A stretch of 20,058 bases of DNA from a virus (IMGVR_UViG_2617270985_000008), one strand, 5' to 3'; numbered from the stretch's first letter, positions 905-20,058 are shown. Notes: generated from the letters alone by a model not told the origin. Program-made: numbers and translations.

Positions 905-916
905 CTTTCTTCCCGA

Positions 917-1925: not shown

Positions 1926-2011
1926 TGTTGTTCATGTCTGTGAGATAGGGTGCCACTTCAGCCAACCTTAGCAACCGATTGACGGGGGATTGCTCCCCCG
2001 TCGCGGTTTCC

Positions 2012-2603: not shown

Positions 2604-2892
2604 AGCGACCTCCCTTAACGTGGTGCTGCCGCTATTCTAAGTTGTAATAGCTCAGACTCCAACTGACAGTTTGCGCAGCCAGAATACAATCAAACCTAGC
2701 GGTACGCTTTGTGCGAAGAGCGGAAGTTCGCAACTCCAACAACTTTGATAACCTCCGCATAAATGGAAATCGGTTGCTTACATAAGTTTATTGGCTGAGG
2801 TGCATATCGGGAAGCAAGCGGGCAGTGCCATCTTATCTGTTACAATCCCGAAATGATTGTTCAGCCCGCTTTTTCTAACAGCATGTAAACAT

Positions 2893-4032
2893 TCAGCTGC
2901 AAATTTCGTTGTTGCTGCATGTTATCTCTTCAAGTGCAGCGGCGTTATAATCAACGGAATGATCAACCTGTGATGTAGGTCTGCCAAAAAATTCAACCCC
3001 TGACATAATCATGTTGCCGATATTCTCTCGCTGTTTATCACTGAGCCTGTCCCACCACTCAGGGGATGAATATGTATTTTCGGCCTTTGTGAAGAAAAAA
3101 TACAGAAGGGTATTGAACATCCTGTTAGCTGGGATCTTAATTAGTGTCCGTATAAAACGTCTGATAATTGTTGAAGTTCTCAGCCAACTGAACACTACAT
3201 ATCCCTTACCTCCGCAGGAAAAAGCATTGAAACATACTTGTTCCGCCGACACTGTAAGATCGCTCAAATCCTGAATTTTGGTCCCATCGAAATCCCTCTC
3301 CGGTGAAAGAATTGACGAAACTACAATTGGTAAAGGCTCTGCAAAAGTGAAGATAACACTTTCAATTTCTGAAAATTGCCTGCTAAGTAGGATGCGGTCG
3401 AGGCTAGTTTTAAGATTATTTAATTCAATTATTGCTGCATTTAAGCCACTTTGGTGCTGGTCGATTAATTTCTGAATATAATACTGTTCAACTTGTAGCT
3501 TTCCTTTATCGGCATTTTTAGCAAAATCAGAAGATAGCACTCCCCCTTCTTTGGCATAAATTTCTTTAGACAATGAACGAAACATTAAGGCAAAGCACTG
3601 CTCGTCCGTGCCTGTAAATTTTTCGTTCTCTAGGCATGAAAATAAGATTCTGTCATGAACTGCACAAAATCCTGTAAAAGTGGATGCCTGATTGATACCG
3701 ATCTTCTCGGGAAGCCATTTTCCGTTGTTTCTCATCAGGCTTGCTAAGTTCATTATCACCCCCATGACGTGATTGCTGGAGTCGGCGATCGCCTTAAGGC
3801 TACTGCTCTTAGATATCGTATGCGCCTGAACGATGCGTTTATCACAATCTTCGTGCATGGATGCTGGCGCATAACATGCCTTTCTCTGCGAGAGAGACTT
3901 TGAAAATTTCAGTGCCTCGGCTTTGGATACCGGAGTTTCACGATCTCGACCAAGATGGCACTTTTTATACTTAAGTCCTGAATTACACCAGCACTTATCA
4001 TTTCTTCCTAATTTCACTTTATTGTTTCCCAC
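2893..4032 (-). CDS. Hypothetical protein with N-terminal SEC-C zinc-binding motif (prophage cargo)
   Basis: 379-aa ORF in a markedly AT-rich segment between D and ogr. The N-terminus KLGRNDKCWCNSGLKYKKCH resembles the SecA C-terminal SEC-C metal-binding motif. No Walker A or other catalytic motif recognised. Start is GTG at 4032 (or GTG at 4017); no in-frame ATG before the motif. Confidence 0.7.
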   Translation of the reverse strand: MGNNKVKLGRNDKCWCNSGLKYKKCHLGRDRETPVSKAEALKFSKSLSQRKACYAPASMHEDCDKRIVQAHTISKSSSLKAIADSSNHVMGVIMNLASLMRNNGKWLPEKIGINQASTFTGFCAVHDRILFSCLENEKFTGTDEQCFALMFRSLSKEIYAKEGGVLSSDFAKNADKGKLQVEQYYIQKLIDQHQSGLNAAIIELNNLKTSLDRILLSRQFSEIESVIFTFAEPLPIVVSSILSPERDFDGTKIQDLSDLTVSAEQVCFNAFSCGGKGYVVFSWLRTSTIIRRFIRTLIKIPANRMFNTLLYFFFTKAENTYSSPEWWDRLSDKQRENIGNMIMSGVEFFGRPTSQVDHSVDYNAAALEEITCSNNEICS

Positions 4033-4431
4033 GAAATTAATGTTCTATAACAAAAACACTTATCGAAAATAGGTGTAATTTATCACTCCGGCAGCTAAAA
4101 GATCATCTGCCACATGCACGATAATAAATCTTCCTTGCGTCATCATCTCCCTCTGTTCTTAAATCAGGTGTTGCCTGTGTGCGGAGGATTCGCGAAGTAC
4201 AGTAGCCGAAATGCATGATCTTACCCATCAATGGTGAGCACGCGATAATAAGTGAGTCCCTAATTGACCACTCATGGCAATACAACTTCAACCAGCATTC
4301 ATGACCACTATCCGTGGATTAACTGTTACATAAGCAACACCTGCTCTAGGCACAAAGCGGGCTGCCAGATTGGGTCTGGCACTGTGCTGTGAGTGTGTCA
4401 GTTCTGGTTTGAGTCAATACATCTAATTTGC

Positions 4432-5532
4432 TCATTCTGTTTCTGCTATCCATTCCGGGATTTTTGCTTCAAGCTCAAGCTGTGTGGTAAAGCCGCTGTT
4501 ATCAATGGTGTGCTCGGCTTTTGCAATAATCCAGTCCTGATTATCGATGTCACTTTTGAAGCCTGTCACCGTGCCATGCATTTCGGGATAGAGTTCTGCG
4601 CGTCCACGCGCCAGCGTGATGGAGAATGATGCGGCTCCGCGTTGTAGCTGCTGCCACTTTGCCGCCGCTGCACGTCTTGCTGCCTGCTCGTTCTGATAAG
4701 TCTTGCGTAACACAAACACGTTGCCTTCCGCACCTTCCATATAGTCACCTTCACGGCTGCTGCTTTTCTCCTTTTTCGGTTTGCGGCGTTTCACGCTGAC
4801 TTTTTTCTTTTTCCCGTAATTAAGATCAAGCCAGTAAGCACGTACCCCCGTATACGCTTCGCGGTCAGCAATGCGGAACTGATGGCGATCGCCACTGCTG
4901 CGCGTGATGGCGAACGATGGCAACGGCTGGCCCTGTGCGTTCACGCCACCGCCTGGCATGATGAATAACAGATTACTGCTTTTTACCGTAGTGATTGCGC
5001 CCAGCATTTCCGCCATGCGCGTAAGGAAGGACATGTCGCTTTCTTCGGTCTGGTCGGCGTGGTCGATTTCAATATCCATCAGCATTTCGCTGATTTGTGG
5101 TTTCAGACCGTACCGATGAGCGATGGCGGATACCACGCGCTCAACGGTCACATCATGCCAGGACACCTCACGTTTAACGTTAAATTCATCCCGAAAATCT
5201 GCGCTTCTGGCTGAAACAGTCAGCCTGTCCGGCGGTCCTTCGTGAGCGATTTCATCAACAATGTAAGTGCCTTTTTCTGTCAGCGGTTCTCCTTTCCAGC
5301 CAATGAGAACCGTCAGGCGCGCGCCCCGTGGCGGTAGCTGCAACTGACCATCCGCATCATCCAGCGTGATGGTGAGCAGGTCCGCTTCAAATCCCCGGTT
5401 GTCGGTCAGTGACAGGCTCATCAGGCGCTCTGCCACGCCGGACAGTGTTTCCCCCTCCGCGAGAATATCAAAATCCGGCATTTTCACGGGGTCTGTGCTC
5501 TGACTGAGCAATTGCATGGTGGTATCGGTCAT
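4432..5532 (-). CDS. D: P2 gpD-like tail protein (late control gene D family)
   Basis: Translation (…SLSLTDNRGFEADLLTITLDDADGQ…SARSADFR…SDGDRHQFRIADREAYTGV…EGDYMEGAEGNVF…NSGFTTQLELE) matches phage gpD. Start chosen at ATG 5532 (MTDTTMQLL…) because of a strong GGGAGG SD; the longer track ORF to 5664 adds a low-complexity extension with no RBS. Confidence 0.85.
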   Translation of the reverse strand: MTDTTMQLLSQSTDPVKMPDFDILAEGETLSGVAERLMSLSLTDNRGFEADLLTITLDDADGQLQLPPRGARLTVLIGWKGEPLTEKGTYIVDEIAHEGPPDRLTVSARSADFRDEFNVKREVSWHDVTVERVVSAIAHRYGLKPQISEMLMDIEIDHADQTEESDMSFLTRMAEMLGAITTVKSSNLLFIMPGGGVNAQGQPLPSFAITRSSGDRHQFRIADREAYTGVRAYWLDLNYGKKKKVSVKRRKPKKEKSSSREGDYMEGAEGNVFVLRKTYQNEQAARRAAAAKWQQLQRGAASFSITLARGRAELYPEMHGTVTGFKSDIDNQDWIIAKAEHTIDNSGFTTQLELEAKIPEWIAETE

Positions 5533-5689
5533 CTGTTCCCTCCCTGTGCGGCATGGTCGCATGTGCGTGCATAGGGGGTTACTGCTTTTTGTTGTCGCCG
5601 TGGCGGGAGAACGGCGCAGGGGTGAGATTACGCGCGTGGTGGGTGATGATTGTTGCCGAATCATTTAACGGATACAAGGGGCTGAAGCT

Positions 5690-6874
5690 ATGAGTGAAAC
5701 TCGTTTTCATGGTGCCCGTGTTACGGAAAGTACCGACCTGGTAACAGCGATTAATGATGTTGATTCCAGTGTTATCGGTATCGTGGCAACGGCGGATGAT
5801 GCGGACGCGGAGCTGTTCCCGCTGAACAAGCCCACACTGCTGACCCGCGTCAATGACGTGCTGGGAAAATGCGGGACTACGGGGACGCTTTATCGTGCGC
5901 TTAAGGCTATTGCAGACCAGGTGAGCACAAAAGTGATCGTCGTTCGCGTGGCTGAACACAAAGAAGAAGGCGGTAAGACGCAGGATCAACTGGTTATCGG
6001 TGGTTCTGAATCTGACGGCAGCTATACGGGGATGTATGCGCTGCTTGTTGCAGAGCAGGATGAAAGCATCGGATACCGTCCGCGTATTCTGGCCGCGCCG
6101 GAGCTGGACACGGAGGCGGTGACAAAATCCCTGTGCGTGATTGCGGGTAAACTGCGCGCGTTTGTGTATGCCTCATGTCATGACTGTAACACGATGGCTG
6201 AGGCAATTACCTACCGCCAGAAATTCAACGAACGTGAGGTGATGCTCTTATGGCCGGACTTCATCGCCTACAACCCGAAAAGTGGCAAAAACGAAACGTT
6301 CCCCGCGCCTGCCTATGCGTGCGGCCTTCGTGCGTACATTGACCATGAGCAGGGCTGGCACAAATCGCTGTCCAACGTTCCTGTTAAAAATGTGCTGGGG
6401 ATGTCCAGGCATGTTTTCTGGTCGTTGCAGGCCGAAGACAGTGATGCCAACAGCCTCAACAACAAAGAAATCACGACCATTATTCGTCGCAACGGGGTCC
6501 GCTTCTGGGGCAACCGCACACCGGAAACGAACGCCTACATCTTTGAGGTGTATACCCGAACCGCACAGGTGCTGGCTGATTCAATTGCGGAAGCGCAGTT
6601 TGAAACCATCGACAGTCCACTGACGCCTGCGAACGTGAAGGATGTTATCAGTGCCATCAGGGCAAAACTGGATTCGCTGGTTACTGCCGGGAAACTGATT
6701 GGCGCGGAGTGCTGGTATGACGTGGTGGATAACAGCACCACGGATTTACGTCAGGGGCGTGTGCGTATTCGCTACAAATATACGCCCGTTCCGCCACTGG
6801 AAGACATGGAGCTTTACCAGACGTTTACTGATGAATACTTTGAACCCGCATTTGCGGTGCTGGGAGGTGCCTGA
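5690..6874 (+). CDS. FI: Contractile tail sheath protein (P2 FI-like)
   Basis: 394 aa; motifs FPLNKP, LRAF.Y, QGWHKSLSNV, FWGNRT, YTPVPPLE are typical of P2 FI sheath. SD AAGGGG upstream. Confidence 0.9.
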   Translation: MSETRFHGARVTESTDLVTAINDVDSSVIGIVATADDADAELFPLNKPTLLTRVNDVLGKCGTTGTLYRALKAIADQVSTKVIVVRVAEHKEEGGKTQDQLVIGGSESDGSYTGMYALLVAEQDESIGYRPRILAAPELDTEAVTKSLCVIAGKLRAFVYASCHDCNTMAEAITYRQKFNEREVMLLWPDFIAYNPKSGKNETFPAPAYACGLRAYIDHEQGWHKSLSNVPVKNVLGMSRHVFWSLQAEDSDANSLNNKEITTIIRRNGVRFWGNRTPETNAYIFEVYTRTAQVLADSIAEAQFETIDSPLTPANVKDVISAIRAKLDSLVTAGKLIGAECWYDVVDNSTTDLRQGRVRIRYKYTPVPPLEDMELYQTFTDEYFEPAFAVLGGA

Positions 6875-7386
6875 TGGCTGTACCAAAACATCTTCGCTTT
6901 TTTACGCTGTTTGTGGATGGTGAAAACGAAGTGGGTAAGGTGACGTCCGTCACTCTGCCTAAGCTGACGCGCAAAACCGACAGCTACCGGGGTGGTGGCA
7001 TGATGGGTGCGGTAAGTATTGATCTCGGTCTGGACGACTCCGCGCTTGATGCGAGCTTTGTCATGGGGGGCGCAGTTCGTGAGCTGTTCCTTAAGTATGG
7101 CGGCACGATTGACGGCACGCTGCTGCGTTTTGCGGGTGAATATTACACCGATGCAGAAAGCGACCTGTATGAAGTCGAAATGCGCGGACGTGTGACGGAA
7201 ATTGATATGGGGGAAGCCAAACAGGGCGAAGCCACATCACACACTTACGCCATTAAAAACACCTACTACAAGCTGAGTGTTAACGATCGCCCGTTGTGGG
7301 AGATTGACCTGCTGAACTTCATTTACCGGAAGGACGGCAAGGACATTGTGCCCGATCGCATCCGTTCCGCGCTCGGGCTTGGCTGA
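6874..7386 (+). CDS. FII: Tail tube protein (P2 FII-like)
   Basis: 170 aa, start overlaps the FI stop (TGATG). Size, position after the sheath gene and sequence fit gpFII. Confidence 0.88.
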   Translation: MAVPKHLRFFTLFVDGENEVGKVTSVTLPKLTRKTDSYRGGGMMGAVSIDLGLDDSALDASFVMGGAVRELFLKYGGTIDGTLLRFAGEYYTDAESDLYEVEMRGRVTEIDMGEAKQGEATSHTYAIKNTYYKLSVNDRPLWEIDLLNFIYRKDGKDIVPDRIRSALGLG

Positions 7387-7440
7387 TAAGTAATATGCAG
7401 GCGGCGCAGTGCGTCGCCTCTGACTGAAAGGAGTTTCCTG

Positions 7441-7806
7441 ATGAAAGAGACGAAAAACATCGATACCGAAAACACGGTAGTTGCTGACACTGTGAAAGAA
7501 ACCAGTGAGCGTGGTGTAAAACTTACCCAACCAATTGAGCGAGGCGGCGAAAAAATCACGTATGTGGAGATCACCGGGGCTATTGAGCAGGCTGGATCTC
7601 TGCGAGATTTGTCGCTGTCTGATGTGCTGAATCTGAAAGCGGAATCCATGTTTACGCTGCTGTCACGCGTGACATCACCGCGACTGGATGAAGTGACGAT
7701 CAAAAAAATGGCATCCCGTGACTTTATTCAGTTATGTGTGGTTGCCGTAAATTTTTTGAGCGGTGCGGACTCTGGCGGGAAGAACGAACAGGCGACGGAA
7801 GCCTGA
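7441..7806 (+). CDS. E: Tail assembly chaperone gpE (zero-frame product)
   Basis: 121-aa ORF with AAGGAG SD, immediately upstream of the tape measure; contains slippery heptamer T_TTT_TTG at 7752-7758. Confidence 0.8.
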   Translation: MKETKNIDTENTVVADTVKETSERGVKLTQPIERGGEKITYVEITGAIEQAGSLRDLSLSDVLNLKAESMFTLLSRVTSPRLDEVTIKKMASRDFIQLCVVAVNFLSGADSGGKNEQATEA

Positions 7807-7970
7807 TCACGGTTGTGTGCTTTGAGCACATAGAAGACTTTGTGGCAGATATTGCCGTTATTTTTAACTGGTCGCCCGCCGAAATCTTCATGATGACGCC
7901 CGGCGAAGTGGTTAGCTGGCGTGAGCGGGCGGCACTTCGCAGCGGGAATGCAGACAATGAAGACTCTTGA
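7441..7970 (+). CDS. Tail assembly chaperone gpE+E' (programmed -1 frameshift fusion)
   Basis: The -1 frame stays open from the slippery site (7752-7758) to TGA at 7968-7970 (the track ORF 7734..7970 is this frame), giving the E+E' extension that ends where T begins, as in P2 (analogous to lambda G/GT). Confidence 0.65.
7752..7758 (+). other. Slippery heptanucleotide T_TTT_TTG for -1 ribosomal frameshift
   Basis: Sequence aaTTTTTTGag inside E, in the correct phase (X XXY YYZ) for the E frame. Confidence 0.65.
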
Positions 7971-10764
7971 TATCCGGGTCGCTTTCAGCGCCGTTGACAG
8001 GCTGACCCGGCCTGCCGAAAACGCCCGCCGCCTGATGGGGCAGTTTGGTGACTCCATCCAGCGAACGCAGGGGGCGATTAAAAATCTCGAGCGTCAGGCT
8101 CGTTCATTTGAGCGCGCCCGCGACGCTGTCAGTAAAGCGGATGCGGGTATCGTGAAAGCACGACGCCAGCTTAACGCCCTTAATCAGTTACAACGCACGG
8201 GTACAGTGCTCAGCGAAAAACAACAAAAGCTGATGCAGCAGTTAAGCACCCGGCTTGAACGCCTGAATGAATCGCGCACACGGGAAATTCAGAAAATGCG
8301 GGAGCTTGGCGGAGAGCTGAAACGCCACGGCATTTCCCTGACAGGCAGCGATAACACCATCCAGCAGGCCATCAGACGCACCGAACAGTACAACAACCAG
8401 CTTGAACGCGAACGGCAGGCGCTTGCGCGTGTAACGCGGGCGCGTGAGTGGTATTCGCGCGCGCAGGAAACCGCGGGAAAACTGAAAACAGGTGGTGCGC
8501 TGGCAATTGGTGCGGCAGCGGCGGGCGGCTATGCTGCCGGGCGTTTTTTGCAGCCCGCGATCGGGTTCGGCAAAGAGATGTCCCGCGTTCAGGCGCTGAC
8601 GCGAATCGACCAGAACAGCCCGCAGTTTAAGGCGCTGCGTGAGCAGGCGTTAAAACTTGGCTCTGAAACGCAGTTCACCGCAGGCGATGCCGCCAGTGGG
8701 CAGGCATTTCTTGCAATGGCAGGCTTCACACCGCAGGCCATTCAGGCTGCGCTTCCCGGAGTGCTGAGCATGGCAACGGCTGGCGGTATGGATCTCGGCG
8801 AGACGGCAGATATTGGCTCAAATATCCTGACGCAGTTCGGCCTTTCTGCTGACCAGATGGACCGGGTCGGTGACACACTCACCGCAGCGTTTACCCGTAC
8901 CAACACTGACCTTCGCGCACTGGGCGAAACCATGAAATATGCAGGTCCGGTGGCGGGTAAGCTGGGAATATCGCTGGAGCAGGCCGCAGCGATGGCTGGT
9001 GTGCTGGCGAATATGGGCATCAGAGGGAGTGATGCCGGGACGGCAATGCGTGCCAGCCTGGCTCGTCTGGCATCACCGCCAAAGGCGGCGGCAGAAGCTC
9101 TGAAAGAGCTGGGCGTGTCCGTCTCGGATGCCGGGGGTAAAATGCGCCCGATGGAGGATGTGCTGGCCGACCTTTATAAAGCCACCCGCAAATACGGGGA
9201 AGTTGACCGGGTATCGTTCTTTAAGGACATTGCCGGAGAAGAGGCTTTCACATCGTTTATGGCGCTCGTTGATGCAGTGGGTGACGGTTCCTTACCCAAA
9301 CTGAGAAAAGAACTTGAAGGCGCGCGCGGTGAGGCTGAACGCACAGCAAAGGTTATGGCCAACAACCTTGACGGCGATCTGAAATCACTCGGCAGTGCAT
9401 GGGAAGGGTTGCGCATCCGCATTGCAGATCTGATTGACGGTCCGCTGCGTTCTGTCACGCAGTGGCTCACGCGGGTGGTATCAAGGGTGACGGCGCTGGC
9501 GCAGGCCCATCCGGCACTGACGCGCCAGCTACTGATAGCAGGCGGTGCGTTGCTGGCAATGACTGCAACGGTTGGCTCGTTGTCGCTGGCTATTGGTGTG
9601 CTTGCTGGTCCGCTGGCAAAACTGCGTCTTGGTTTTTCTCTCCTGACCGGATCAATGAATGCTGTCAGGGTCCTGCCAGCACTATGGGGAATGGTGACGG
9701 GTTCCGTTTCTTTACTGGGAGGCGCTATCGGGGCGCTGTTCAGTCCGGTTGGTCTTATCGTGGCTGCGCTTGCCGGAGCTGCCGTCCTTATCTGGAAATA
9801 CTGGGATCCCATCAGGGCATTTTTTGCCGGGGTGTTCAGCGGGATTATGGAAAGGCTGAACCCGTTGCGTGAAACCTTTGAACGGTTTGGCCCTGTTTTT
9901 GACGCAATCGGAAGCGGGATCAGCCAGGTGTTTAACTGGTTTAAATCGCTGCTGTCACCGATGGAGTCCAGCAAGGAAACGCTGGATAAATGTACCAGTG
10001 CTGGCGAGATATTCGGTAACGTTCTTGGCGGTGCGTTACAACTTGTTCTGACACCTGCAAAAATGCTACTGGATACGCTGGCGTGGATACTTGAAAAACT
10101 TGGCGTCCTTCCGGATGAAGCGGAAAGGGCGCGCAAGAAAATCGAAGACGCACAGCGTGCGGCCATTCTTCAGGATAAGGTTGCCTTACTTCAGGGGGAC
10201 CTGGCGAAAATCAATCCGCCGAAGCCTGTGGAAAATGGCAATGGCACCGGAGGTGATAAACCCAAAGACAACAAACCGCTCACAGACAGCAATACCGGGA
10301 CGCTACGCAGACTCAGCAAAATTGCTGATAACACAGGTAAGCTGGTTGATGAGACGAAAAAACGCATTGGCCCTGGCGATATTGTCTTTAAGAACCTGCC
10401 CCGCGCACTTGCTGTTCGTGGGGAGTGGCAGGAGCGGAAGATTGCGCAGGTCAGTAAGCCTGCCCCCGCAATTAATATCACACCCGTAGTCCCGGCTCCG
10501 CTGCCTCCGGCGCTGGTCCCTGTTGTTGCGGCCAGCTCCCGCCCGGTGGCGGAGGCCATACGATCGCCAGTGGCATCAGTTCCTGCAGCTTCCCGTAATC
10601 GGGAGCCTGCTGTCTCCAGATTTGGCGGTGAAATTCATGTTCATCTGCATAACGTTGTTACGCAGAATCCCCGCGAACTGGCGAAACTGGTCGGTGAAAT
10701 GGTCAGGGCAGAAATGGAACGGCGCGCCCGTGCCGGGCGTGGCAGTTTTTACGATAAAGATTGA
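7921..10764 (+). CDS. T: Tail tape measure protein (P2 gpT-like)
   Basis: 947-aa ORF, coiled-coil-rich N-terminal half, hydrophobic Gly/Ala-rich central segments, Pro-rich C-terminus; located between E/E' and U. Track start is GTG 7921; the true start is more likely ATG 7948 or 7957. Confidence 0.85.
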   Translation: MSGRHFAAGMQTMKTLDIRVAFSAVDRLTRPAENARRLMGQFGDSIQRTQGAIKNLERQARSFERARDAVSKADAGIVKARRQLNALNQLQRTGTVLSEKQQKLMQQLSTRLERLNESRTREIQKMRELGGELKRHGISLTGSDNTIQQAIRRTEQYNNQLERERQALARVTRAREWYSRAQETAGKLKTGGALAIGAAAAGGYAAGRFLQPAIGFGKEMSRVQALTRIDQNSPQFKALREQALKLGSETQFTAGDAASGQAFLAMAGFTPQAIQAALPGVLSMATAGGMDLGETADIGSNILTQFGLSADQMDRVGDTLTAAFTRTNTDLRALGETMKYAGPVAGKLGISLEQAAAMAGVLANMGIRGSDAGTAMRASLARLASPPKAAAEALKELGVSVSDAGGKMRPMEDVLADLYKATRKYGEVDRVSFFKDIAGEEAFTSFMALVDAVGDGSLPKLRKELEGARGEAERTAKVMANNLDGDLKSLGSAWEGLRIRIADLIDGPLRSVTQWLTRVVSRVTALAQAHPALTRQLLIAGGALLAMTATVGSLSLAIGVLAGPLAKLRLGFSLLTGSMNAVRVLPALWGMVTGSVSLLGGAIGALFSPVGLIVAALAGAAVLIWKYWDPIRAFFAGVFSGIMERLNPLRETFERFGPVFDAIGSGISQVFNWFKSLLSPMESSKETLDKCTSAGEIFGNVLGGALQLVLTPAKMLLDTLAWILEKLGVLPDEAERARKKIEDAQRAAILQDKVALLQGDLAKINPPKPVENGNGTGGDKPKDNKPLTDSNTGTLRRLSKIADNTGKLVDETKKRIGPGDIVFKNLPRALAVRGEWQERKIAQVSKPAPAINITPVVPAPLPPALVPVVAASSRPVAEAIRSPVASVPAASRNREPAVSRFGGEIHVHLHNVVTQNPRELAKLVGEMVRAEMERRARAGRGSFYDKD

Positions 10765-10770
10765 GGAGTC

Positions 10771-11265
10771 ATGGCCATGATGATGATCTATGGCATGTTT
10801 GTTTTTGAGCTGCGCACGCTGCCGCATCAGCAGTTACAGCAAAACAAAAGCTGGCGGCATGTGAAAAATGAACGCGTTAACCGTTCAGCAAGCTGGCAGT
10901 ATATCGGTGCAGGTGATGATCGCATCGTTCTTTCTGGTGTGCTTTATCCTGAAATTACAGGTGGCGAAGTGTCGCTGTCTCTGCTGACCACGCAGGCGTA
11001 TACAGGACGGCCCTGGCCTCTGATTGATGGCGTCGGGCAGATTTACGGCATGTATGTCCTGACCGAAACGAATACGACCCGCTCCGAGTTTGATCGCTAC
11101 GGTAAGGCGAAAAAGATAGAATTTTCACTGACTCTTGAACGCTGTGATGAGGATTTGCGGGAGCGCCTGCAATCCTCATCGTTCAGCGATATGTTGTCCG
11201 GCTTCAAAGATAAGGTGACATCATCCCTTAATAGCGCGACCAGCTCAGTTAAGGGGCTGCTCTGA
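10771..11265 (+). CDS. U: Tail protein gpU-like
   Basis: 164 aa; TLPHQQLQQNKSWRH…LSGVLYPEITGGEVSL…WPLIDG…RSEFDRYGKAKKIEFSLTLE resembles P2 gpU. Several ATGs at 10771-10785, so the exact start is uncertain. Confidence 0.8.
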   Translation: MAMMMIYGMFVFELRTLPHQQLQQNKSWRHVKNERVNRSASWQYIGAGDDRIVLSGVLYPEITGGEVSLSLLTTQAYTGRPWPLIDGVGQIYGMYVLTETNTTRSEFDRYGKAKKIEFSLTLERCDEDLRERLQSSSFSDMLSGFKDKVTSSLNSATSSVKGLL

Positions 11266-11341
11266 TTTAACGTATGTCGCCAATTTCCTGATGAAGGTGA
11301 CTGGCGACTTGCTGTTGTATGTCCTTCTCAGAAAATTGTTT

Positions 11342-11370
11342 TTGAATAACAAACAACAGGATTTTATAAT
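11342..11370 (+). promoter_or_regulatory. Near-consensus sigma70 promoter (TTGAAT, 17-nt spacer, TATAAT) driving the acetyltransferase
   Basis: TTGAAT at 11342-11347 and TATAAT at 11365-11370; a second TATAAT at 11381-11386. About 50 nt upstream of the AAGGAG SD. Confidence 0.5.
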
Positions 11371-11421
11371 CTCTTAACCTTATAATATGTGTGGTCTGAA
11401 ATAATAATTAAGGAGATTATC

Positions 11422-11994
11422 GTGCTGTCTTACTTAATGGCAATTCACTTTGTTTTATTTGGGGACTCTACTAATTTAAAAAACTTCTGGAAATATGAAG
11501 TAATTCGGCGGAAACGTATGGATATCTGGAGGCTTTTAAGAGAGAAAAAACAGCGTAACCGGAATTTCCTTTTCTGGTGGCGGTTGGCTAACGAAATGTA
11601 TATTAATGGTAATAAATTACATAAGAAAGCAGCCAAAAAGTTAAACAGTAAAATAATTAACAAATTTGGTTGTGAAATTGGATTGGGCGCAAATATTGGA
11701 AAAGGGTTAACAATTCCCCATCATGCTGGAATTGTTGTTCATTTTGCTGTTGATGCTGGTGAAAATCTGGTGTTACGACAGAATACTACCATTGGACAGA
11801 TAGATGGTGACATGCCTGGTTCAAGAGTAAAAATTGGTAGTAACGTTGATATCGGAGCTAATTGTTGCATCATTGGATTATCACGTAAAATTGGGGATAA
11901 TGTAAAAATAGGTGCAATGTCTTTTATAAATAAAGATATACCATCGAACTGCACATATATAACTAAAAAGAGCGGTGTTGTATTGTATAAATAG
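11422..11994 (+). CDS. Hexapeptide-repeat (left-handed beta-helix) acetyltransferase, serine acetyltransferase/WcaB-like
   Basis: AT-rich ORF; C-terminal half has hexapeptide repeats (IGANIGKGLTIPHHAGIVV…IGSNVDIGANCCIIG…IGDNVKIGAMSFI). Start set at GTG 11422 with AAGGAG 6 nt upstream; the track ORF begins at 11389 without an RBS. Confidence 0.8.
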   Translation: MLSYLMAIHFVLFGDSTNLKNFWKYEVIRRKRMDIWRLLREKKQRNRNFLFWWRLANEMYINGNKLHKKAAKKLNSKIINKFGCEIGLGANIGKGLTIPHHAGIVVHFAVDAGENLVLRQNTTIGQIDGDMPGSRVKIGSNVDIGANCCIIGLSRKIGDNVKIGAMSFINKDIPSNCTYITKKSGVVLYK

Positions 11995-12002
11995 AGTACA
12001 TA

Positions 12003-12030
12003 AAGCCATCTATATTTCAATCGATGGCTT
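12003..12030. terminator. Bidirectional hairpin terminator between the acetyltransferase and the tail-fibre assembly gene
   Basis: 8-bp perfect stem AAGCCATC / GATGGCTT with 12-nt loop, flanked by AAA on the left and TTTTCTCTTT on the right. Confidence 0.5.
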
Positions 12031-12037
12031 TTTCTCT

Positions 12038-12616
12038 TTATTGTGGGGCGACTGGCCACTCAACATCCGCTGCTACCGCTGTATTAACACGATTCAACAA
12101 TACCCGGTATGTCTTCCATGCAGCCAGTAACGATGCCTCTTCCTCCGTTGCAATATCCAAATCTACGGCATCCTGAAGTGGCGCAATATGCTCGCTGGCT
12201 ACCTGCATCAGGCTGTTTTTTGTTTCTTCCGCCTCCCTTATCCGAAACAGTTTTTCTGCTTCTGCATCTTTCACCCAGGATGTGCCGTTCCACTTCTGAT
12301 ACTCTCCATACGGCGACAACCAGGTAACATTTTCCGGTAATGGACCGAGTTCAGAAATAAATAACGAGTCCCCTGATGCCACGTCATAAACCGTTTTACC
12401 CCGATGGTCTTCAACGAGATGCCACGATGCCTCATCACTGTTGAAAACGGCCACGAAGCCAGCCGGAATATCTGGCGGGGCAATATCGGTACTGTTTGCA
12501 GGCAGACCTGTATGAGGTGGAATGTATGCATCACCTTCACCAATAAACTCATTGGTTCCGGTCAGTAGATTATAAATTTTTATGGTCCGTGAGTGTTCAC
12601 TCATTCTGAATGTCAT
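12038..12616 (-). CDS. G: Tail fibre assembly protein (P2 gpG / Tfa family)
   Basis: 192 aa directly downstream of the tail-fibre gene; C-terminus (…[35 protein letters not shown]) is the conserved Tfa signature. Alternative start ATG 12604. Confidence 0.8.
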
Positions 12617-14509: not shown

Positions 14510-15257
14510 TGCGCCCACCTTCGCTGATGGTGAACGACTCACAGCGCGCCGCCTGTATGTCGCTGATGGCCATATTCTGTGTGGGTTCGATTATCTCCAC
14601 GCGTTGCACACCGTGCACATGCAGTGCGGCAGCAATGGCGGACAACGCCACGTCCTGACCGATAAGCCCCTGCTCAGCCAGCCACTTCCTGAACGACGAT
14701 TCAGCCGCCGCCAGAATAGGTTCGGATTCCGGGCCGGGGTAAAAGTACAGTTTTGCATTCAGCCGCCATGTCACGATTCTGGCGCTCTGTACCGTCAGGC
14801 GGTCGGCCACCGGGCGGGTATCCTCTGCATTCAGAACGGCGCGAACGGTATTAAGCAACGCCTCCGTTGCTGTGCCGTCGCCTTCAGTGGACAGGATGGA
14901 AACCGTCACATTTGCCGGAGACGGACTGATAGCCCGCGCATCACGCACCAGACCGCTGGCGCTGCGGGCAAAATACTCGTATGCACCTGACGGGCCAGCA
15001 ACACTCAGGCCATCGTACGCCCGCTGCGCCCGCAGTCTCAGCGAGGTGTCACTTTCCATCACTGCGTCGGTGGTATCCGTTGCCGGAGTGATGGTCAGGC
15101 GCTTTGTGTTCATATTGCCCGCGAGGTTGTCCAGGTCTGTCCCGGCGCTGTGGCTTAACATGCAGGCGCGTGCCCCCTCATTGACCCGCTGGCGTAACGA
15201 GCGTTTCACGGTTATGGAGTTCTGATGAGCAGAAAAAATAAAAAAGTGCGCATGAGT
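14502..15257 (-). pseudogene. J: Baseplate assembly protein gpJ, 5'-truncated remnant
   Basis: Translation (…RQRVNEGARA…MESDTSLRLRAQRAYDGLSVAG…RPVADRLTVQSA…YFYPGPESEPI…HVHGVQRVE…) matches roughly the C-terminal 220 aa of gpJ. Homology stops near 15210-15250, where the opposite-strand Q start abuts; about 85 N-terminal codons are missing. Confidence 0.75.
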
Positions 15258-15959
15258 TCACGCATTGATCTCGCTGATGCGCTCAGGAAAGAATCATCGC
15301 TCAGTGCATTCACATTTGATGGTCCTTATCGCCTGACCGGGCATGACCTGCTGGACAATATGTACTGTGCTGATAACGGGCGGTGGTATGAAACCCCGGT
15401 GGACTGGTACGGTCTGGCAAGAGCCGCCCGGCAAACGTCCTGGCATCAGTCTGCGCTTTACTTTAAGCGCAATGTATTGCTCGGTTGCTACATCCCGCAC
15501 CCGCTGCTTTCCCGGCAGGATTTCTCGGCGCTGGCGCTGGACTGGTTTGTGTTCGGTAACGCATTCCTTGAGCTTCGAAGCAATATGCTCGGCGAACCGC
15601 TTAAATTACGGCACGCCCTGGCGAAATACATGCGACGCGGAAGCGATCTTGAATCATGGTGGTATGTGCAGGATGGCAAGGATGCGTTTCAGTTTCGCCC
15701 AGGCAAAGTGTGCCACCTGATGAATCCGGACATTAACCAGGAAATCTACGGCATGCCGGAATATCTCGGCGCATTACTCTCGGCCAGCCTGTCTCATTCG
15801 GCGGACATGTTCAGAAAACTGTATTACGACAACGGATCCCACGCCGGGTGCATCATCTACATCGGTGCAGCGCAGGTAAACCGCGAAAGCATGGACTCCC
15901 TGAAAGAAACGCTACAGGGTGCGCGTGGTGGTGGTGCGTTTCACGTCCTCTGGAGGTGA
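15225..15959 (+). pseudogene. Q: Portal protein gpQ, 3'-truncated remnant
   Basis: 244-aa ORF with portal motifs (…NGRWYE…YFKRNVL…IPHPLLS.QDF…FGNAFLE…DINQEIYGMPEYL…YYDNGSHAG…) corresponding to roughly the N-terminal 70% of a P2-type portal; ends in unrelated sequence. Confidence 0.75.
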
Positions 15960-16076
15960 AACGAACGACAGGAAAATGCTTAATTGCCATTACGCCTCCT
16001 TGGTGTGTGTGAATACCTCTGCGAATGCAGATTGTGTTCACATTTTTTTATTTAAGCTGGGGTTTTATTTATGCGG

Positions 16077-16190
16077 TTATTCGCCAGTGAAAAAGCGTTC
16101 AATCTTTTTTACTGAATTAATAATTCGCATAATACCAATTGCACAAACTACCGAAATAATAAGAACAATCCAGGATATAAATATACTCAT
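16077..16190 (-). CDS. Putative 37-aa hydrophobic membrane peptide
   Basis: Not in the ORF track. ATG overlaps the stop of the upstream 80-aa gene (ATGA coupling). Translation MSIFISWIVLIISVVCAIGIMRIINSVKKIERFFTGE has one TM helix and a basic C-terminus. Confidence 0.35.
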   Translation of the reverse strand: MSIFISWIVLIISVVCAIGIMRIINSVKKIERFFTGE

Positions 16191-16429
16191 GCGATATTTC
16201 CCAGTTTGTACGGCTCAATATGCTCCCCGCATTCTGCGGCGCAGATAAGCTCAGAAAGTTCATTAAGTGCATCCAGATCGTCAGCGTAAAAAGCTACGTC
16301 ATACAGACTCCGGATAGCCCTGGTCAATGAGTCACGGGCTGCACGTTCTGAATGAGCGCCGGATGCGCTTAAACGAAAATAAAAACGCTCAAGTGCTTTG
16401 TTGATGAGAGTTTTATATTCTTTATCCAT
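16187..16429 (-). CDS. Hypothetical prophage early-region protein (80 aa)
   Basis: Tightly packed in the leftward early operon; no recognisable motif. Confidence 0.5.
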   Translation of the reverse strand: MDKEYKTLINKALERFYFRLSASGAHSERAARDSLTRAIRSLYDVAFYADDLDALNELSELICAAECGEHIEPYKLGNIA

Positions 16430-16440
16430 CGCAACACCCT

Positions 16441-16719
16441 TTAATCTGCTTTCTGAATTTCAGCTTCTGAATCCATGCAGATAATCTCGATATAGGGTTC
16501 ATCGCCATTAACCTGACGAGATTTTTCGGCTTCGCTAATTATTTCGCGAATGATCTGGTACGGAAGCTCTACAGTCAGGCGTGTACCGTTCAGATAAACG
16601 TAGGTAGCTGCGTTTTTTTCAGATGGAACTACTCCGTCAATAGCTGATGCGCGTAATAACAGTTCACCGCGAAAATCAATAAAGCGGATAAATACACCTT
16701 GTGCATGGTCTTTAGTCAT
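16441..16719 (-). CDS. Hypothetical prophage early-region protein (92 aa)
   Basis: ORF 11 nt downstream of the previous gene on the same strand; acidic C-terminus; function unknown. Confidence 0.5.
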   Translation of the reverse strand: MTKDHAQGVFIRFIDFRGELLLRASAIDGVVPSEKNAATYVYLNGTRLTVELPYQIIREIISEAEKSRQVNGDEPYIEIICMDSEAEIQKAD

Positions 16720-16729
16720 AAAGCACCTG

Positions 16730-17080
16730 TTATAAAGCAGCCTGTTTAATAAAACTTTGCCCGCGAAGCAGACGATCGACTGTGCGTAGTGCTTCGTACA
16801 ATGTGAAATCCTGCCCGAACTGATTATCGCCGCTGCTTAATGCAAAAATGCGGTTTCCGGTAAACGGATTGTGTGGGCATCTGTGAACCACGATTCCAGC
16901 TTTCTCAATCAGCCAGGTGTGTTCGCCGATTTGTTTTACAGCGTGCCCATCTGGTGTTGCGTGCGTCTCGTTCAGGTTATAGCGGCTGTTACTACGTGAT
17001 GCACTGGTAGCGACGTGGTGTACATGGCGTTCTACGCCATTACGAAATTTGGAGTATGGATTATTAGTGTTTTTTTTCAT
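16730..17080 (-). CDS. Hypothetical prophage early-region protein (116 aa)
   Basis: ORF in operon arrangement; His/Cys-containing; function unknown. Confidence 0.5.
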   Translation of the reverse strand: MKKNTNNPYSKFRNGVERHVHHVATSASRSNSRYNLNETHATPDGHAVKQIGEHTWLIEKAGIVVHRCPHNPFTGNRIFALSSGDNQFGQDFTLYEALRTVDRLLRGQSFIKQAAL

Positions 17081-17101
17081 GATGATGCTCTGTTCATTGT
17101 T

Positions 17102-17305
17102 TTAGCTGTTAGCCAAAGCGTCTTTTAACATCGCCACAAGGTTTACTTCAGGCTTTTCCATTTTGGCGCGTTTGGGGCGGATAATAATTCGACCGTCAGC
17201 CAACATCTTTTTGCATGTATTAAGAGGGATACCTGTTATCTCTGCATATTTCTGCAGGGATACATAGGGGGCATTCACATTGATATTGATGGTTATACCT
17301 GACAT
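17102..17305 (-). CDS. Cox/Apl-like small DNA-binding protein (putative excisionase/regulator)
   Basis: 67 aa; the segment PYVSLQKYAEITGIPLNTCKKMLADGRI resembles the HTH region of P2 Cox (PYQEFAKLIGKSTGAVRRMIDKGKLP); position in the early operon fits. Confidence 0.55.
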   Translation of the reverse strand: MSGITININVNAPYVSLQKYAEITGIPLNTCKKMLADGRIIIRPKRAKMEKPEVNLVAMLKDALANS

Positions 17306-17321
17306 CCCACTAGCCTCCTGA

Positions 17322-17528
17322 TCAGGAAGATTTGTTTTGTTCTTTCTGGGTTAGCTCTAGGCCGCGAAGGAAGATCATGCGCGCCATGTTAGAGGATGAG
17401 CGTTGTTCTTTAGCTGCCATTTCATCAATGACGGCTCGCTCCTCGAGGGACAGCCGAAGTGCCAGTCTTGGACCTGTGGCGGTGTTACGCGGAATGCGTG
17501 ATCTGGTATCGTGAAGAACTTGTTTCAT
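17322..17528 (-). CDS. Ribbon-helix-helix (Arc/CopG-like) DNA-binding protein, first gene of the leftward early operon
   Basis: 68 aa; RLALRLSLEERAVIDEMAAKEQRSSSNMARMIFLRGLE fits a beta-strand/helix/helix RHH fold; divergent from the XRE repressor across a 75-bp control region. Confidence 0.5.
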   Translation of the reverse strand: MKQVLHDTRSRIPRNTATGPRLALRLSLEERAVIDEMAAKEQRSSSNMARMIFLRGLELTQKEQNKSS

Positions 17529-17570
17529 AGTGGTATATTGTGATCATCTAATAGCTCGTGAAATCATTTT

Positions 17571-17588
17571 GGTATCAAAAAAGATACC
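17571..17588. promoter_or_regulatory. Candidate operator: perfect inverted repeat GGTATC-AAAAAA-GATACC in the divergent control region
   Basis: Lies in the 75-bp interval between the RHH and repressor start codons; a further GGTATA half-site at 17532-17537 and a TGATCA palindrome at 17541-17546. Confidence 0.4.
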
Positions 17589-17603
17589 TGTAAAGGTTTT
17601 TGT

Positions 17604-18008
17604 ATGAAAAATGATATTGGTCAGCGGTTGCGTGAGGAAAGGGAAAGATTGGGACTTAGTCAAGTTGCCATGAGCGACATTGGTGGAGTCAAAAAGCTAA
17701 CTCAGCTTAGATATGAGAAAGGAGATAGCTTTCCTGATGCTGCGTATTTGGCAGCGCTGTCTCGTTTTGGCCTTGATGTTCAGTATGTTGTGTTGGGAAT
17801 TCACTCACCTGAAACTTATAACGATGATGAGCAGGAGTTGATTACTCGCTTTCGAGCAGCTTCGTTAGATGTGAAAAACGCGGTGATCGGGGCTTTAAAA
17901 GGTGCGATCAGTGAAAAGGAAACTCAGCCATCAGGACGTGAGTTAAATATTTCTGGTGGTAATAACCGTATCGCTGGTCGTGACTATAACGAAACTAAGG
18001 GTAGGTGA
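17604..18008 (+). CDS. XRE-family helix-turn-helix repressor (P2 C / CI-like immunity repressor)
   Basis: 134 aa; N-terminal IGQRLREERERLGLSQVAMSD…YEKG is a canonical HTH_XRE; first gene of the operon ending in int, as in P2 (C-int). The C-terminus carries the GGNNRIAGRDYNE motif. Confidence 0.75.
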   Translation: MKNDIGQRLREERERLGLSQVAMSDIGGVKKLTQLRYEKGDSFPDAAYLAALSRFGLDVQYVVLGIHSPETYNDDEQELITRFRAASLDVKNAVIGALKGAISEKETQPSGRELNISGGNNRIAGRDYNETKGR

Positions 18009-18023
18009 TAGTAGGGAGGTGAC

Positions 18024-18674
18024 ATGGCCGTCAACTCAAACGGTTCAAACAATCGCGTTGCTGGGCGTGATTTTCACGAAAAGAAAATTCAGATAGAGCG
18101 ATATGATGGTTCTCATACCGTCAATATCGCAATCCCTTCGAATAATGATGATGACGATCGCCCTTTGCTTAAGGCTCAGCGTAAGGAGCTAAATAGCTTG
18201 GTTGCTGCTATTGCAGAAGCTAGCAATACTGAAGCGTTTATTATTTGGCAAAAAGTACATGCGGAGATTGGTGTAGCTGGTATTGATGATATGACAGTAA
18301 ATCAATATAAAACAGCGGAGAGTTTTCTGCATGCAATGCTTGAGCGATGTAAAGATCATGATGCCTGTAAGACTCTTGTAAGTTTATTACTACGTAACAG
18401 TGAAGACTGTGGACTTCGACAAAAACTTCTGCGGTATTGCCATATCAATTTCGGTACAGGACGTTTAAACGATCTTACTCGTTCTCAGTTACAGTCTGCA
18501 TTGTCGTGGTTAGAGCAACAATCGGCATCAAGTCACACAGAGAGTTCGGCCTTACCAGAAGTTCGACTTCGTGCTTCAGAATTAATCCGACTTTATCCAA
18601 AAGAAATAATATTCTTTATCTGCGTAGGGGTTTTGGTAGGCGGTGCCATTTCTAGGGTGTTTTTTAATTTGTAA
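18024..18674 (+). CDS. Hypothetical tail-anchored membrane protein (216 aa) sharing an N-terminal motif with the repressor C-terminus
   Basis: Strong SD GGGAGG 4 nt before the ATG; N-terminus NGSNNRVAGRDFHE repeats the repressor C-terminal motif; C-terminal TM helix IIFFICVGVLVGGAI. Same reading frame as the repressor, separated by TGA-TAG-TAG. Confidence 0.6.
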   Translation: MAVNSNGSNNRVAGRDFHEKKIQIERYDGSHTVNIAIPSNNDDDDRPLLKAQRKELNSLVAAIAEASNTEAFIIWQKVHAEIGVAGIDDMTVNQYKTAESFLHAMLERCKDHDACKTLVSLLLRNSEDCGLRQKLLRYCHINFGTGRLNDLTRSQLQSALSWLEQQSASSHTESSALPEVRLRASELIRLYPKEIIFFICVGVLVGGAISRVFFNL

Positions 18675-18703
18675 TCTTACTTGAGCTAAATTGAGGTAAT
18701 GAT

Positions 18704-19051
18704 ATGAAAGTAAAAAAGGTTCAACTATTAGTTACTTTTTTATCTATGTTTTCTTTTTCCGCCGTCGCAATGCCTTTTAAAACTATTGAACGTGAGAGTT
18801 TCAATGGGGTATGGCCATTTAATACTGATGAGGTTCAATTACAGTGTCTTGATGGTAATCCTTATGTGATGAATTTTGACGATAATAAGTTATATGCGCT
18901 TACAGGTTTAGCTCGAATAAAAGGTAAAACATTTGGTGCGTTACCGTTAGATAACAATAATCCATTTTGGCTAGATAATGATGCCGCCCCAGGGTTAAAA
19001 AAGAGTCTGGGGGATGTCACTAAGGCTGCATTTGATTTATGTGATAAGTAA
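18704..19051 (+). CDS. Hypothetical secreted/periplasmic protein (115 aa, signal peptide)
   Basis: MKVKKVQLLVTFLSMFSFSAVA signal peptide; mature protein with two Cys (possible disulfide); SD GAGG 7 nt upstream; AT-rich. Confidence 0.6.
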   Translation: MKVKKVQLLVTFLSMFSFSAVAMPFKTIERESFNGVWPFNTDEVQLQCLDGNPYVMNFDDNKLYALTGLARIKGKTFGALPLDNNNPFWLDNDAAPGLKKSLGDVTKAAFDLCDK

Positions 19052-19056
19052 CTAAA

Positions 19057-20058
19057 ATGTCGGTTCGTAAGATTCCATCAGGTAAATGGCTTTGCGAATG
19101 TTATCCCTACGGGGCATCGGGAAAACGCATTCGTAAACAGTTTGCGACAAAAAGTGAGGCGCTCTCTTATGAGCGCCGTTTAATGAATAGTAGAGTTGGA
19201 GACGAGTTTCAAGATGGTTCTGGTCCTCGTCTTTCTGAGTTGATTGCTCGTTGGTTTGAGATGTACGGTAAAACCTTGTCCTCTGGTGCAGAGCGCAAAG
19301 TCAAACTTGAGGCGATTTGTTCCAGGCTGGGGGATCCATTTGCTTCTCAGTTTGACAAAAATATGTTTGCTACTTATCGGGAAAGAAGGCTATCAGGAGA
19401 ATGGAATCCCAAGGGGAAGAAAAAACTTAGTGAAGCAACCGTTAATCGCGAGCAGTCATATCTACATGCTGTTTTTGCCGAACTGAAGCGCCTTGGGGAG
19501 TGGTCTGGTGAAAACCCCCTGACTGGTATTCGCAAGTTTCGTGAGGAAGAAAAGGAACTGGCGTTTCTGTATGTAGATGAGATTGAACGCCTTCTGATTG
19601 CGTGTGATGAGTCACGGAATAAAGATTTGGGGGTTGTTGTCCGTATTGGGCTTGCGACTGGTGCTCGGTGGAGTGAAGCTGAAGGATTAAAGCAATCTCA
19701 AGTACTGCCCGGTCGAATCACATTTGTTAAAACTAAAGGAAAGAAGAACCGCACTGTACCGATTTCACCTCAATTGCAGGCTATGCTTCCTCAAAAACGA
19801 GGAGCGCTATTTTCACCATGTTATGAGGCTTTTGACGCTGCAATTAAGAGAGCGAAGATCGAGCTTCCTGATGGGCAATTAACTCATGTGCTACGTCACA
19901 CGTTTGCCAGTCATTTTATGATGCGGGGCGGAAATATTCTTGTGTTGCAAAAAATACTGGGGCATAGCGATATAAAAATGACTATGCGTTATGCGCATTT
20001 TGCTCCAGGTCATTTAGAGGCTGCTGTTGAATTGAACCCTTTTGACAATAGAGGGTAA
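19057..20058 (+). CDS. int: Tyrosine recombinase, P2-type phage integrase
   Basis: 333 aa; matches to P2 Int throughout (GKRIRKQF.TKSEA…, RLSEL, GLATGARW.EA, ITFVKTKGKKNRTVPIS, HVLRHTFASHFMMRGGNILVLQKILGHSDIKMTMRYAHFAP). The window ends at its TAA. Confidence 0.9.
   Translation: MSVRKIPSGKWLCECYPYGASGKRIRKQFATKSEALSYERRLMNSRVGDEFQDGSGPRLSELIARWFEMYGKTLSSGAERKVKLEAICSRLGDPFASQFDKNMFATYRERRLSGEWNPKGKKKLSEATVNREQSYLHAVFAELKRLGEWSGENPLTGIRKFREEEKELAFLYVDEIERLLIACDESRNKDLGVVVRIGLATGARWSEAEGLKQSQVLPGRITFVKTKGKKNRTVPISPQLQAMLPQKRGALFSPCYEAFDAAIKRAKIELPDGQLTHVLRHTFASHFMMRGGNILVLQKILGHSDIKMTMRYAHFAPGHLEAAVELNPFDNRG

Follow-up and report, generated by a model that had tools for sequence, protein, structure and literature searches.

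We analyzed a single low-GC gene in IMGVR_UViG_2617270985_000008, a 20,058-nucleotide (nt) segment of an Escherichia coli chromosome (hereafter, the window) that contains the decayed remnant of a P2-like prophage. The gene carries the automatic name "serine O-acetyltransferase" and is located between the tail gene U and the tail-fibre assembly gene tfa/G. Its product is a hexapeptide-repeat acyltransferase, and the gene is tied to a cassette of fibre-tip and chaperone genes rather than to a position on the P2 map. An earlier note, made from the sequence of the window, had singled it out as cargo that might modify surface polysaccharides. At this locus, we find the following features (positions in the window; PGAP, Prokaryotic Genome Annotation Pipeline).

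10771-11265, plus strand: tail gene U, the last of the FI-U block (Pfam Phage_P2_GpU, 5.5e-39; PGAP)
11342-11370, plus strand: sigma-70-like promoter, TTGAAT (11342-11347), 17-nt spacer, TATAAT (11365-11370)
11410-11415, plus strand: Shine-Dalgarno sequence AAGGAG, 6 nt ahead of the GTG at 11422
11422-11994, plus strand: acetyltransferase coding sequence (PGAP), 190 amino acids, WP_000954196.1, start GTG at 11422 and stop TAG at 11992-11994
12002-12039, both strands considered: hairpin and T-tract, with the stem AAAGCCATC / GATGGCTTT
12038-12616, minus strand: tfa/G, tail-fibre assembly chaperone, homologue of P2 G and lambda Tfa (Pfam Caudo_TAP, 1.2e-39)

The gene is AT-rich, as the earlier note had stated, with a GC content of 34.6% in the coding sequence and 34.1% over positions 11266-12037, versus about 54% in the flanks (54.9% in FI-U and 53.7% in H-J). 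Its start was fixed at the GTG at 11422 because P1-like alleles carry an ATG at the matching codon; a 201-amino-acid open reading frame (ORF) from the GTG at 11389 and a start at the ATG at 11437 were both ruled out by the position of the ribosome-binding site and by the P1-like ATG. The strong Shine-Dalgarno sequence described before was found again, and the ribosome-binding motif AATAATTAAGGAGATTATCGTG is kept in the homologous loci L143, L146, L148 and L149. The promoter-like site agrees with the consensus at 10 of 12 positions; its hexamers are identical in L149, the protein of which is 71% identical, and are not conserved in L143, L146 and L148. The 43-nt gap between the convergent stop codons of the acetyltransferase and tfa is occupied by the hairpin (12002-12031), which has a 9-bp stem, conserved in the P1-like phage JL22, and a folding energy of -14.4 kcal/mol (z -5.1) on the plus strand and -14.3 kcal/mol (z -4.8) on the minus strand. 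Behind it, there is UUUUUCUCUUU on the plus strand and only UUUAUGU on the minus strand. The hairpin probably acts as the intrinsic terminator of the acetyltransferase gene and, with less likelihood, of the convergent tfa, and the "bidirectional" terminator of the earlier note is only partly supported because the minus strand lacks a good U-tract. Morons are defined by their own promoter and terminator together with an odd composition, and these sequence signals are present here, with a promoter match that is not above chance. The description as self-contained cargo is in line with the low GC content, the promoter-like site, the ribosome-binding site and the terminator, and with the absence of the gene from phage P88 and its occurrence in 510 of the 5426 complete E. 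coli genomes. The exact protein was found on at least 1000 contigs, and the 901-bp stretch that includes the gene (11200-12100) is 100% identical in intact O26 prophages. Across alleles that are 83 to 98% identical at the nucleotide level, the ratio of nonsynonymous to synonymous substitution rates (dN/dS) ranges from 0.05 to 0.26, which shows purifying selection on the protein.

In the Pfam scan, the protein matched Hexapep and Hexapep_2 only, and the NCBIfam and structure matches likewise bore out its assignment to the hexapeptide-repeat acyltransferases. The N-domain is short and helical; it spans about residues 1-82, contains the FLFWWRLANEMY motif and has a short hydrophobic helix at its N-terminus. 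A left-handed beta-helix follows. The AlphaFold model places five helices in residues 2-82, with a predicted local distance difference test score (pLDDT) of about 90. The nearest solved structures in the PDB, both by sequence and by fold, are CysE enzymes; because the Foldseek E-values were weak (1e-3 or higher), the fold search was used solely to confirm the serine-acetyltransferase-like (SAT-like) class. Among the NCBIfam models, the protein scored 75 bits with EpsC (cut-off, 150), 61.5 bits with CysE TIGR01172 (cut-off, 210.65) and 36.7 bits with PRK11132 (cut-off, 397). Two models of WcaB gave 54.2 and 53.3 bits (cut-offs, 196 and 194.65), and LacA and Maa gave 28 and 21 bits (cut-offs, 347 and 314). 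Judged by these profiles, the enzyme belongs to the SAT-like branch, under every curated cut-off. It also matches PHROG 2154 (E 1.4e-87, residues 13-190 against positions 3-181 of a 185-position profile), a family annotated as "unknown function". A PADLOC scan of the protein returned no defence family, so that calling it a known defence gene would be unfounded.

Residue conservation was read from an alignment of 37 homologues. His100 is near-invariant (kept in at least 90% of them), Asp or Glu occupies position 85 in every one of the 37, and most of the motif FLFWWRLA is conserved, with W52 and R54 invariant; the catalytic (Asp/Glu)-His pair is kept. The serine-binding residues of E. coli CysE are Asp157, Arg192 and His193. 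When the protein was aligned to CysE of Neisseria gonorrhoeae, the equivalent positions (E. coli numbering) read Pro, Ser and Arg, and the loop in which they lie is hypervariable across the 37 homologues. Besides, the N-domain has about 82 amino acids versus about 140 in CysE, and the protein ends (...VLYK) straight after the beta-helix, with no C-terminal CysK-binding tail. Regarding the other named families, the gene was not found in a wca/eps cluster setting but in a prophage tail region, and the Pfam scan detected no Acyl_transf_3 (PF01757) multi-pass membrane domain. BLASTP against the fragment of NeuO from phage CUS-3 gave 25 bits over 42 amino acids; the C-terminal fragment of NeuO matches the WbbJ, LacA and Vat models, whereas our protein matches EpsC, CysE and WcaB. 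From these comparisons, the enzyme is neither CysE nor WcaB nor NeuO. A grouping with housekeeping CysE, which according to the earlier note would refute its proposal, was not obtained in the profile placement, and the automatic name "serine O-acetyltransferase" is unsupported.

The acetyltransferase gene is immediately downstream of tfa/G and convergent with it, as P2 fun(Z) is with G. On the opposite side, its neighbour is U and not FI because the P88-like backbone carries FI-U inverted; the Z/fun position between G and FI that had been claimed is correct, then, only on the side of G. The P2-like prophage shares with the P1-like phages JL22 and Ro157c2YLVW a 1.8-kb block at 94 to 95% identity, made up of the acetyltransferase, tfa and the last ~200 codons of H, with unrelated flanks (in the window, the H tip itself is mostly deleted). 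Phage P88 has U and the N-terminal part of H in common with the window, but not the 1.8-kb block. Its similarity stops at about 11271 (megablast covers 10700-11271 only), and its gap between U and tfa contains a DNA invertase, an alternative fibre tip and a chaperone, with the acetyltransferase absent. In P1-like phages, the gene is found between two convergent chaperone genes of the Cin-invertible C segment, flanked on either side in JL22 (L002, 3394-8857) by 602-nt inverted repeats. In another locus (L139), the C segment has the opposite orientation; both orientations are thus present in the databases, and therefore the acetyltransferase flips with the fibre tips. We detected neither a Cin/Gin-type crossover core (AAACCNNGGTTT, 1 mismatch allowed) nor long inverted repeats in the window, and the invertible-segment context belongs to P88 and the P1-like phages, not to the window.

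We extended the analysis of synteny to 80 IMG/VR viral loci with homologues of 45 to 100% identity (tfa within 120 nt). A convergent tfa was present in 67 of the 80; five loci ended at a contig edge, and eight had a different arrangement. When loci were clustered at 90% identity, the pairing was found in 10 of 15 clusters. We found tfa and the homologue paired in this way also in Citrobacter phiNP, Hafnia yong2 and E. coli 613R2, and the upstream neighbour is varied (gpU, P1-type U', hicAB, an integrase or the end of the prophage). These data tie the gene to the fibre-tip/chaperone cassette and not to the P2 map position. In a Salmonella remnant, the homologue is co-directional, after a fibre gene and two ORFs, the first of which matches tail-fibre and fibre-assembly families. 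In Salmonella Infantis (L009, STM4194-4204 region, 1-7582), a 53% identical homologue closes a tail-gene remnant that also has a bactoprenol glucosyltransferase (gtr-type O-antigen glucosylation), which would make two surface-modifying cargos on one remnant. A scan of genome contigs returned mostly generic hexapeptide proteins among the matches listed, with only L010-L023 usable. As for the tfa of the window, it is 89% identical in nucleotides to lambda tfa and 93 to 95% identical to those of P1-like phages. The 3' part of its coding sequence (12075-12273, minus strand) matches Rfam IS009 (RF02111) with 192 bits (gathering score, 117), which suggests that this small RNA ("sRNA") family was modelled on prophage tfa sequence.

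Several known systems resemble this gene in part. P2 fun(Z) is also a non-essential low-GC cargo convergent with G, but it is an unrelated protein that blocks T5, encoded by a gene of about 1.6 kb, and its right-hand neighbours in P2 are the pF promoter and FI. NeuO, carried by the K1 prophage CUS-3, is like the window gene a prophage-borne hexapeptide-repeat O-acetyltransferase adjoining the gene of a receptor-binding protein; neuO is directly downstream of the endosialidase tailspike gene, and NeuO modifies the phage's own receptor, polysialic acid. However, it belongs to the LacA/WbbJ branch, has a capsule acceptor and is carried by a P22-like podovirus, and its gene contains a phase-variable heptanucleotide tract (19 AAGACTC copies in CUS-3), of which there is none in the window sequence. 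The NeuO precedent brought up in the earlier note is therefore useful as an analogy only, given the different branch and the 25 bits shared. Oac of Sf6 and the OafA/GtrC-type genes are lysogenic-conversion acetylation genes found near the tailspike or attachment-site region of temperate phages. Oac and OafA are membrane Acyl_transf_3 enzymes that act on the O antigen, whereas the window enzyme is predicted to be soluble and SAT-like, and its gene neighbourhoods point toward the core of the lipopolysaccharide (LPS). Lysogenic conversion by Oac-type acetylation has been described for Shigella phages (PMC3630932). A P2-like prophage carries NeaT, an acyltransferase whose AT-rich gene (about 30% GC) converges with G and gives rise to phenotypes in both surface properties and virulence (PMC3573123). 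Like the window gene, it is a single-gene AT-rich acyltransferase moron downstream of and opposite to G, and it has its own promoter; unlike it, NeaT is an integral-membrane Acyl_transf_3 (PF01757) protein and is located between G and FI, while our gene is between G and U. NeuO, the Oac-type proteins and NeaT are precedents for the proposed logic; the enzyme of the window comes from a family different from theirs. With WcaB and EpsC, its best-scoring named models, it shares the architecture (short helical N-domain, left-handed beta-helix, about 160-190 amino acids) and a histidine motif of the H-H-x-G-I-V type; the differences are the scores (54 against 196 and 75 against 150) and the location outside a wca/eps cluster. 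CysE has the fold and the catalytic pair in common with it, and differs in the serine-binding residues, the long N-domain, the C-terminal tail and the genomic context. In the literature search, we found no characterised member of the family, and the papers on the P2 hotspot do not mention the acetyltransferase. Papers on tailocins and one on Gifsy GiPD474 turned out to be unrelated.

The genomic neighbourhoods of homologues provide some clues to the acceptor: homologues found outside phages, or accompanied by another cargo gene, are repeatedly located with LPS-core functions. A waa operon of Leminorella grimontii (waaG-like, waaP, waaB, waaI/O, waaY, waaZ) ends with a homologue (48% identity, E 9e-46) that faces waaL. 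In Xenorhabdus prophages, the homologue is followed by a Glyco_transf_25 gene and, in a Morganella prophage, by a Glyco_transf_9 gene (heptosyltransferase family), the pair being convergent with the fibre in both cases; in L155 and L157, an HtrL_YibB gene lies between the homologue and tfa. Elsewhere, homologues adjoin ugd and arn genes (Intestinirhabdus) or a GT2 glycosyltransferase and a nucleotide-sugar dehydrogenase (a member from the Pseudomonas group), and a second member from the Pseudomonas group is near a pseudaminic acid synthase. No cys genes were found in any of the homologue contexts examined. Phage phiNP, which has a homologue beside its fibre, uses the LPS-core GlcII as its receptor (PMC6456863). 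These neighbourhoods lend indirect support to the surface-glycan modification put forward in the earlier note, a function that seems plausible and better grounded, albeit unproven.

A paralogue of about 195 amino acids, 52 to 56% identical, is found on plasmids (4011-4598 in L171, NC_022267, and 4983-5570 in L172, NC_013942). It is part of a block with repA, a yacA/yacB-type toxin-antitoxin, a hypothetical gene, the acetyltransferase and a ProQ/FinO-like gene. We looked at this block in one IncI-gamma/K1 plasmid and in pO55 (typed as IncFIB), and no fibre gene was present near the paralogue within it. In total, 492 plasmid records matched the query; identity was below 60% in 457 of these records, and 265 were typed as conjugative. 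Thin-pilus adhesins of IncI plasmids bind the LPS core of the recipient.

The interpretation that we prefer, and in which we place about as much belief as doubt, is that the enzyme O-acetylates LPS or another surface glycan and acts in lysogenic conversion. The gene, probably a moron (self-expressed cargo), would code for a soluble or peripheral hexapeptide acyltransferase of the trimeric type, with acetyl-CoA as the likely donor. The acceptor would be a sugar of the LPS, the core region being the leading candidate, or alternatively another lipid-linked surface glycan. The reaction would take place in the lysogen, at the cytoplasmic face of the inner membrane, where the sugar would be modified before export, and expression in the lysogen would alter the exported molecule, i.e., lysogenic conversion. 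Read-through from the late FI-U operon may also occur because there seems to be no strong terminator behind U. Fibre tip, chaperone and acetyltransferase would be inherited together as a mobile cassette, with the acetyltransferase as its distal gene. The advantage would probably come from masking or altering a receptor for such fibres, with superinfection exclusion, fewer progeny lost on cell debris or a changed surface antigen as the result. The donor, the acceptor, expression in the lysogen and every phenotype are inferred. A more specific version, unlikely in our opinion, would make the acetyltransferase the "immunity" half of the cassette: it would O-acetylate the LPS-core sugar bound by the co-transferred tip or by fibres of its class, giving a fibre-specific superinfection exclusion that moves together with host range among P2-like, P1-like and other myoviruses. 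By the same logic, the paralogue of the IncI complex would give surface exclusion: in donor cells, it would hide the LPS-core receptor to which the thin-pilus adhesin PilV binds.

Several observations weigh against the assignment to surface-glycan acetylation. In the AlphaFold model, the beta-helix was predicted with low confidence (pLDDT 51-69), which is expected because a monomer of a trimeric fold was modelled. The sigma-70 promoter proposed in the earlier note has its hexamers in place (TTGAAT, 17 nt, TATAAT), but the number of promoter-like matches in this AT-rich stretch is not above chance (6 found versus 4.6 +/- 2.2 expected from shuffles). Many relatives are lone islets without glycan context, and others are on IncI-type plasmids, far from any fibre. 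In the P1-like plasmid CP115328 (L173, 4989-9656), the acetyltransferase allele is only 38% identical, with a fibre tip and tfa 81 to 91% identical in nucleotides (stretches that align) to their counterparts in the O26 prophage corresponding to the window. Allele and tip are therefore not strictly coupled; at this locus, the slot is conserved and the allele swapped. Lambda side fibres are said to bind OmpC rather than LPS, and the tfa of the window is lambda Tfa-like. Guilt by association carries little weight when the genes are single ones at a general moron hotspot, and the Z/fun hotspot is described as one of mixed purpose, with swaps of fibre and tfa genes (10.1101/2024.10.15.618418). The authors of the JL22 study call the role of the acetyltransferase unknown (PMC9603915). 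The linkage to tip and chaperone fits receptor masking, and it would fit equally well a passive hitch-hiking at a recombination-prone, insertion-tolerant site.

Hitch-hiking is the alternative that survives best, possible even if we would not expect it to be right. The gene would be a moron for an active acetyltransferase without any functional tie to the fibre, with an acceptor such as colanic acid, enterobacterial common antigen (ECA), an O-unit, capsule, a peptidoglycan precursor or a small metabolite, and would sit beside tfa only since insertions are tolerated at the 3' end of the fibre operon, which recombines as one unit. The site downstream of G, known as a mixed-purpose hotspot (PMC3573123; 10.1101/2024.10.15.618418), the relatives in lone islets and on IncI plasmids and the divergent allele next to a similar fibre tip all favour it, as does the presence among the nearest named models of WcaB, the colanic-acid acetyltransferase. 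However, the WcaB score is far under the cut-off (54 versus 196), the convergent pairing with tfa is maintained in homologues of as little as 45% protein identity and in phages with unrelated backbones, and there are four independent pairings with LPS-core-type genes. Much less credible is a fitness gene for detoxification or antibiotic modification, with an acetyltransferase of the LacA/Maa/Vat/CatB type as its product; the weak LacA and Maa matches and the homologues on conjugative plasmids would be in line with it, but both scores are far under their cut-offs, the SAT-like N-domain and motif are unlike the LacA branch, and no resistance-gene context was seen. If the enzyme acted on the phage itself and acetylated the fibre, the chaperone or a virion-bound glycan, the close linkage to tfa would make sense, with its constant pairing and the co-transfer with the fibre tip. 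This seems just as improbable, since the gene is intact and identical to that of intact prophages in a window in which the fibre tip has been deleted, homologues are present in a waa operon and on fibre-less plasmids, and the moron-type promoter suggests expression in the lysogen. Moreover, acetylation of proteins is not known from hexapeptide acyltransferases. Finally, an auxiliary CysE, i.e., a true serine O-acetyltransferase boosting cysteine synthesis in lysogeny or lytic growth, would agree with the automatic name, the closest solved structures and the catalytic His with its acidic partner, but is hardly believable considering the scores, the replaced serine-binding positions in a hypervariable loop, the short N-domain, the missing CysK-binding tail and the contexts devoid of cys genes described above.

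The remaining features of the window describe a prophage in decay, followed by a different element.

1-549: pgsA, at the left end of the window
701-1003: cluster of tRNA-Gly, tRNA-Cys and tRNA-Leu, followed by the P2-family prophage
about 2012-2152, minus strand: hok/gef toxin gene, at the prophage edge
2893-4032, minus strand: YecA/SEC-C protein of 379 amino acids, between ogr and D ("YecA family" in PGAP)
4432-5532, minus strand: D
5690-11265, plus strand: FI, FII, E, T and U block, inverted relative to P2
12616-13976, minus strand: H, tail-fibre pseudogene (Pfam Phage_tail_fib and Phage_fiber_2)
right of tfa/G, minus strand: H, I and the J fragment
17604-18008: cI-like helix-turn-helix repressor of the other element, in the right part of the window
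18024-19051: two PHROG families of the other element, function unknown according to the database
19057-20058: tyrosine integrase, running past the end of the window

The gene order is hok/gef, ogr (minus strand), the YecA/SEC-C protein, D, FI-U, the acetyltransferase, tfa/G, H, I and the J fragment. The backbone matches phage P88 (genus Xuanwuvirus), with FI-U inverted versus P2; an intact prophage in E. coli O26 strain RM10386 shares 99.8% identity with the left 12.7 kb of the window. Relative to its intact O26 counterpart, H has lost 766 bp at about 12673, which breaks its frame and removes most of the receptor-binding tip. J is truncated at about 15210, where it abuts a fragment with the end of the terminase and the start of the portal (about 15210-15960), and the head genes are missing; the J/terminase-portal junction was found as one piece in none of the complete E. 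coli genomes in the collection. The window prophage is a decayed P2-like remnant. That the acetyltransferase itself is only a leftover of this degraded prophage, without current function, is nevertheless scarcely conceivable, with an intact ORF, complete identity of 11200-12100 in intact O26 prophages, dN/dS values well into the range of selection and the exact protein on so many contigs. Behind the tRNA cluster, the stretch 1200-2155 is AT-rich (37% GC) and has a small hypothetical gene (PHROG 27544). The gene at 2893-4032 is a second low-GC cargo (about 40% GC), the product of which has an N-terminal SEC-C zinc motif and weak PADLOC matches to E1-E2/E2 models; P88 has no gene at this place. 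From 16000 to 20058, to the right of the P2-like remnant, the window belongs to the different element listed above.

Acetylation by phage cargo is of a known kind, whereas the SAT-like family found here had no characterised member in the literature searched. Even if the surface-glycan interpretation were false, the label "serine O-acetyltransferase" on thousands of records would still be unsupported, and the gene should not be counted as an auxiliary gene of cysteine metabolism. If it is true, about one in ten complete E. coli genomes would carry a mis-named LPS-editing enzyme, and the carriers would include Shiga toxin-producing E. coli (STEC) strains of O26, O111 and O103, many P1-like phage-plasmids and IncI plasmids. 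This would bear on the prediction of phage host range, phage therapy, the biocontrol of STEC, core-directed serology and, possibly, conjugation. The gene would, moreover, clearly exemplify how a receptor-binding module can be inherited in one unit with a gene that modifies the receptor.

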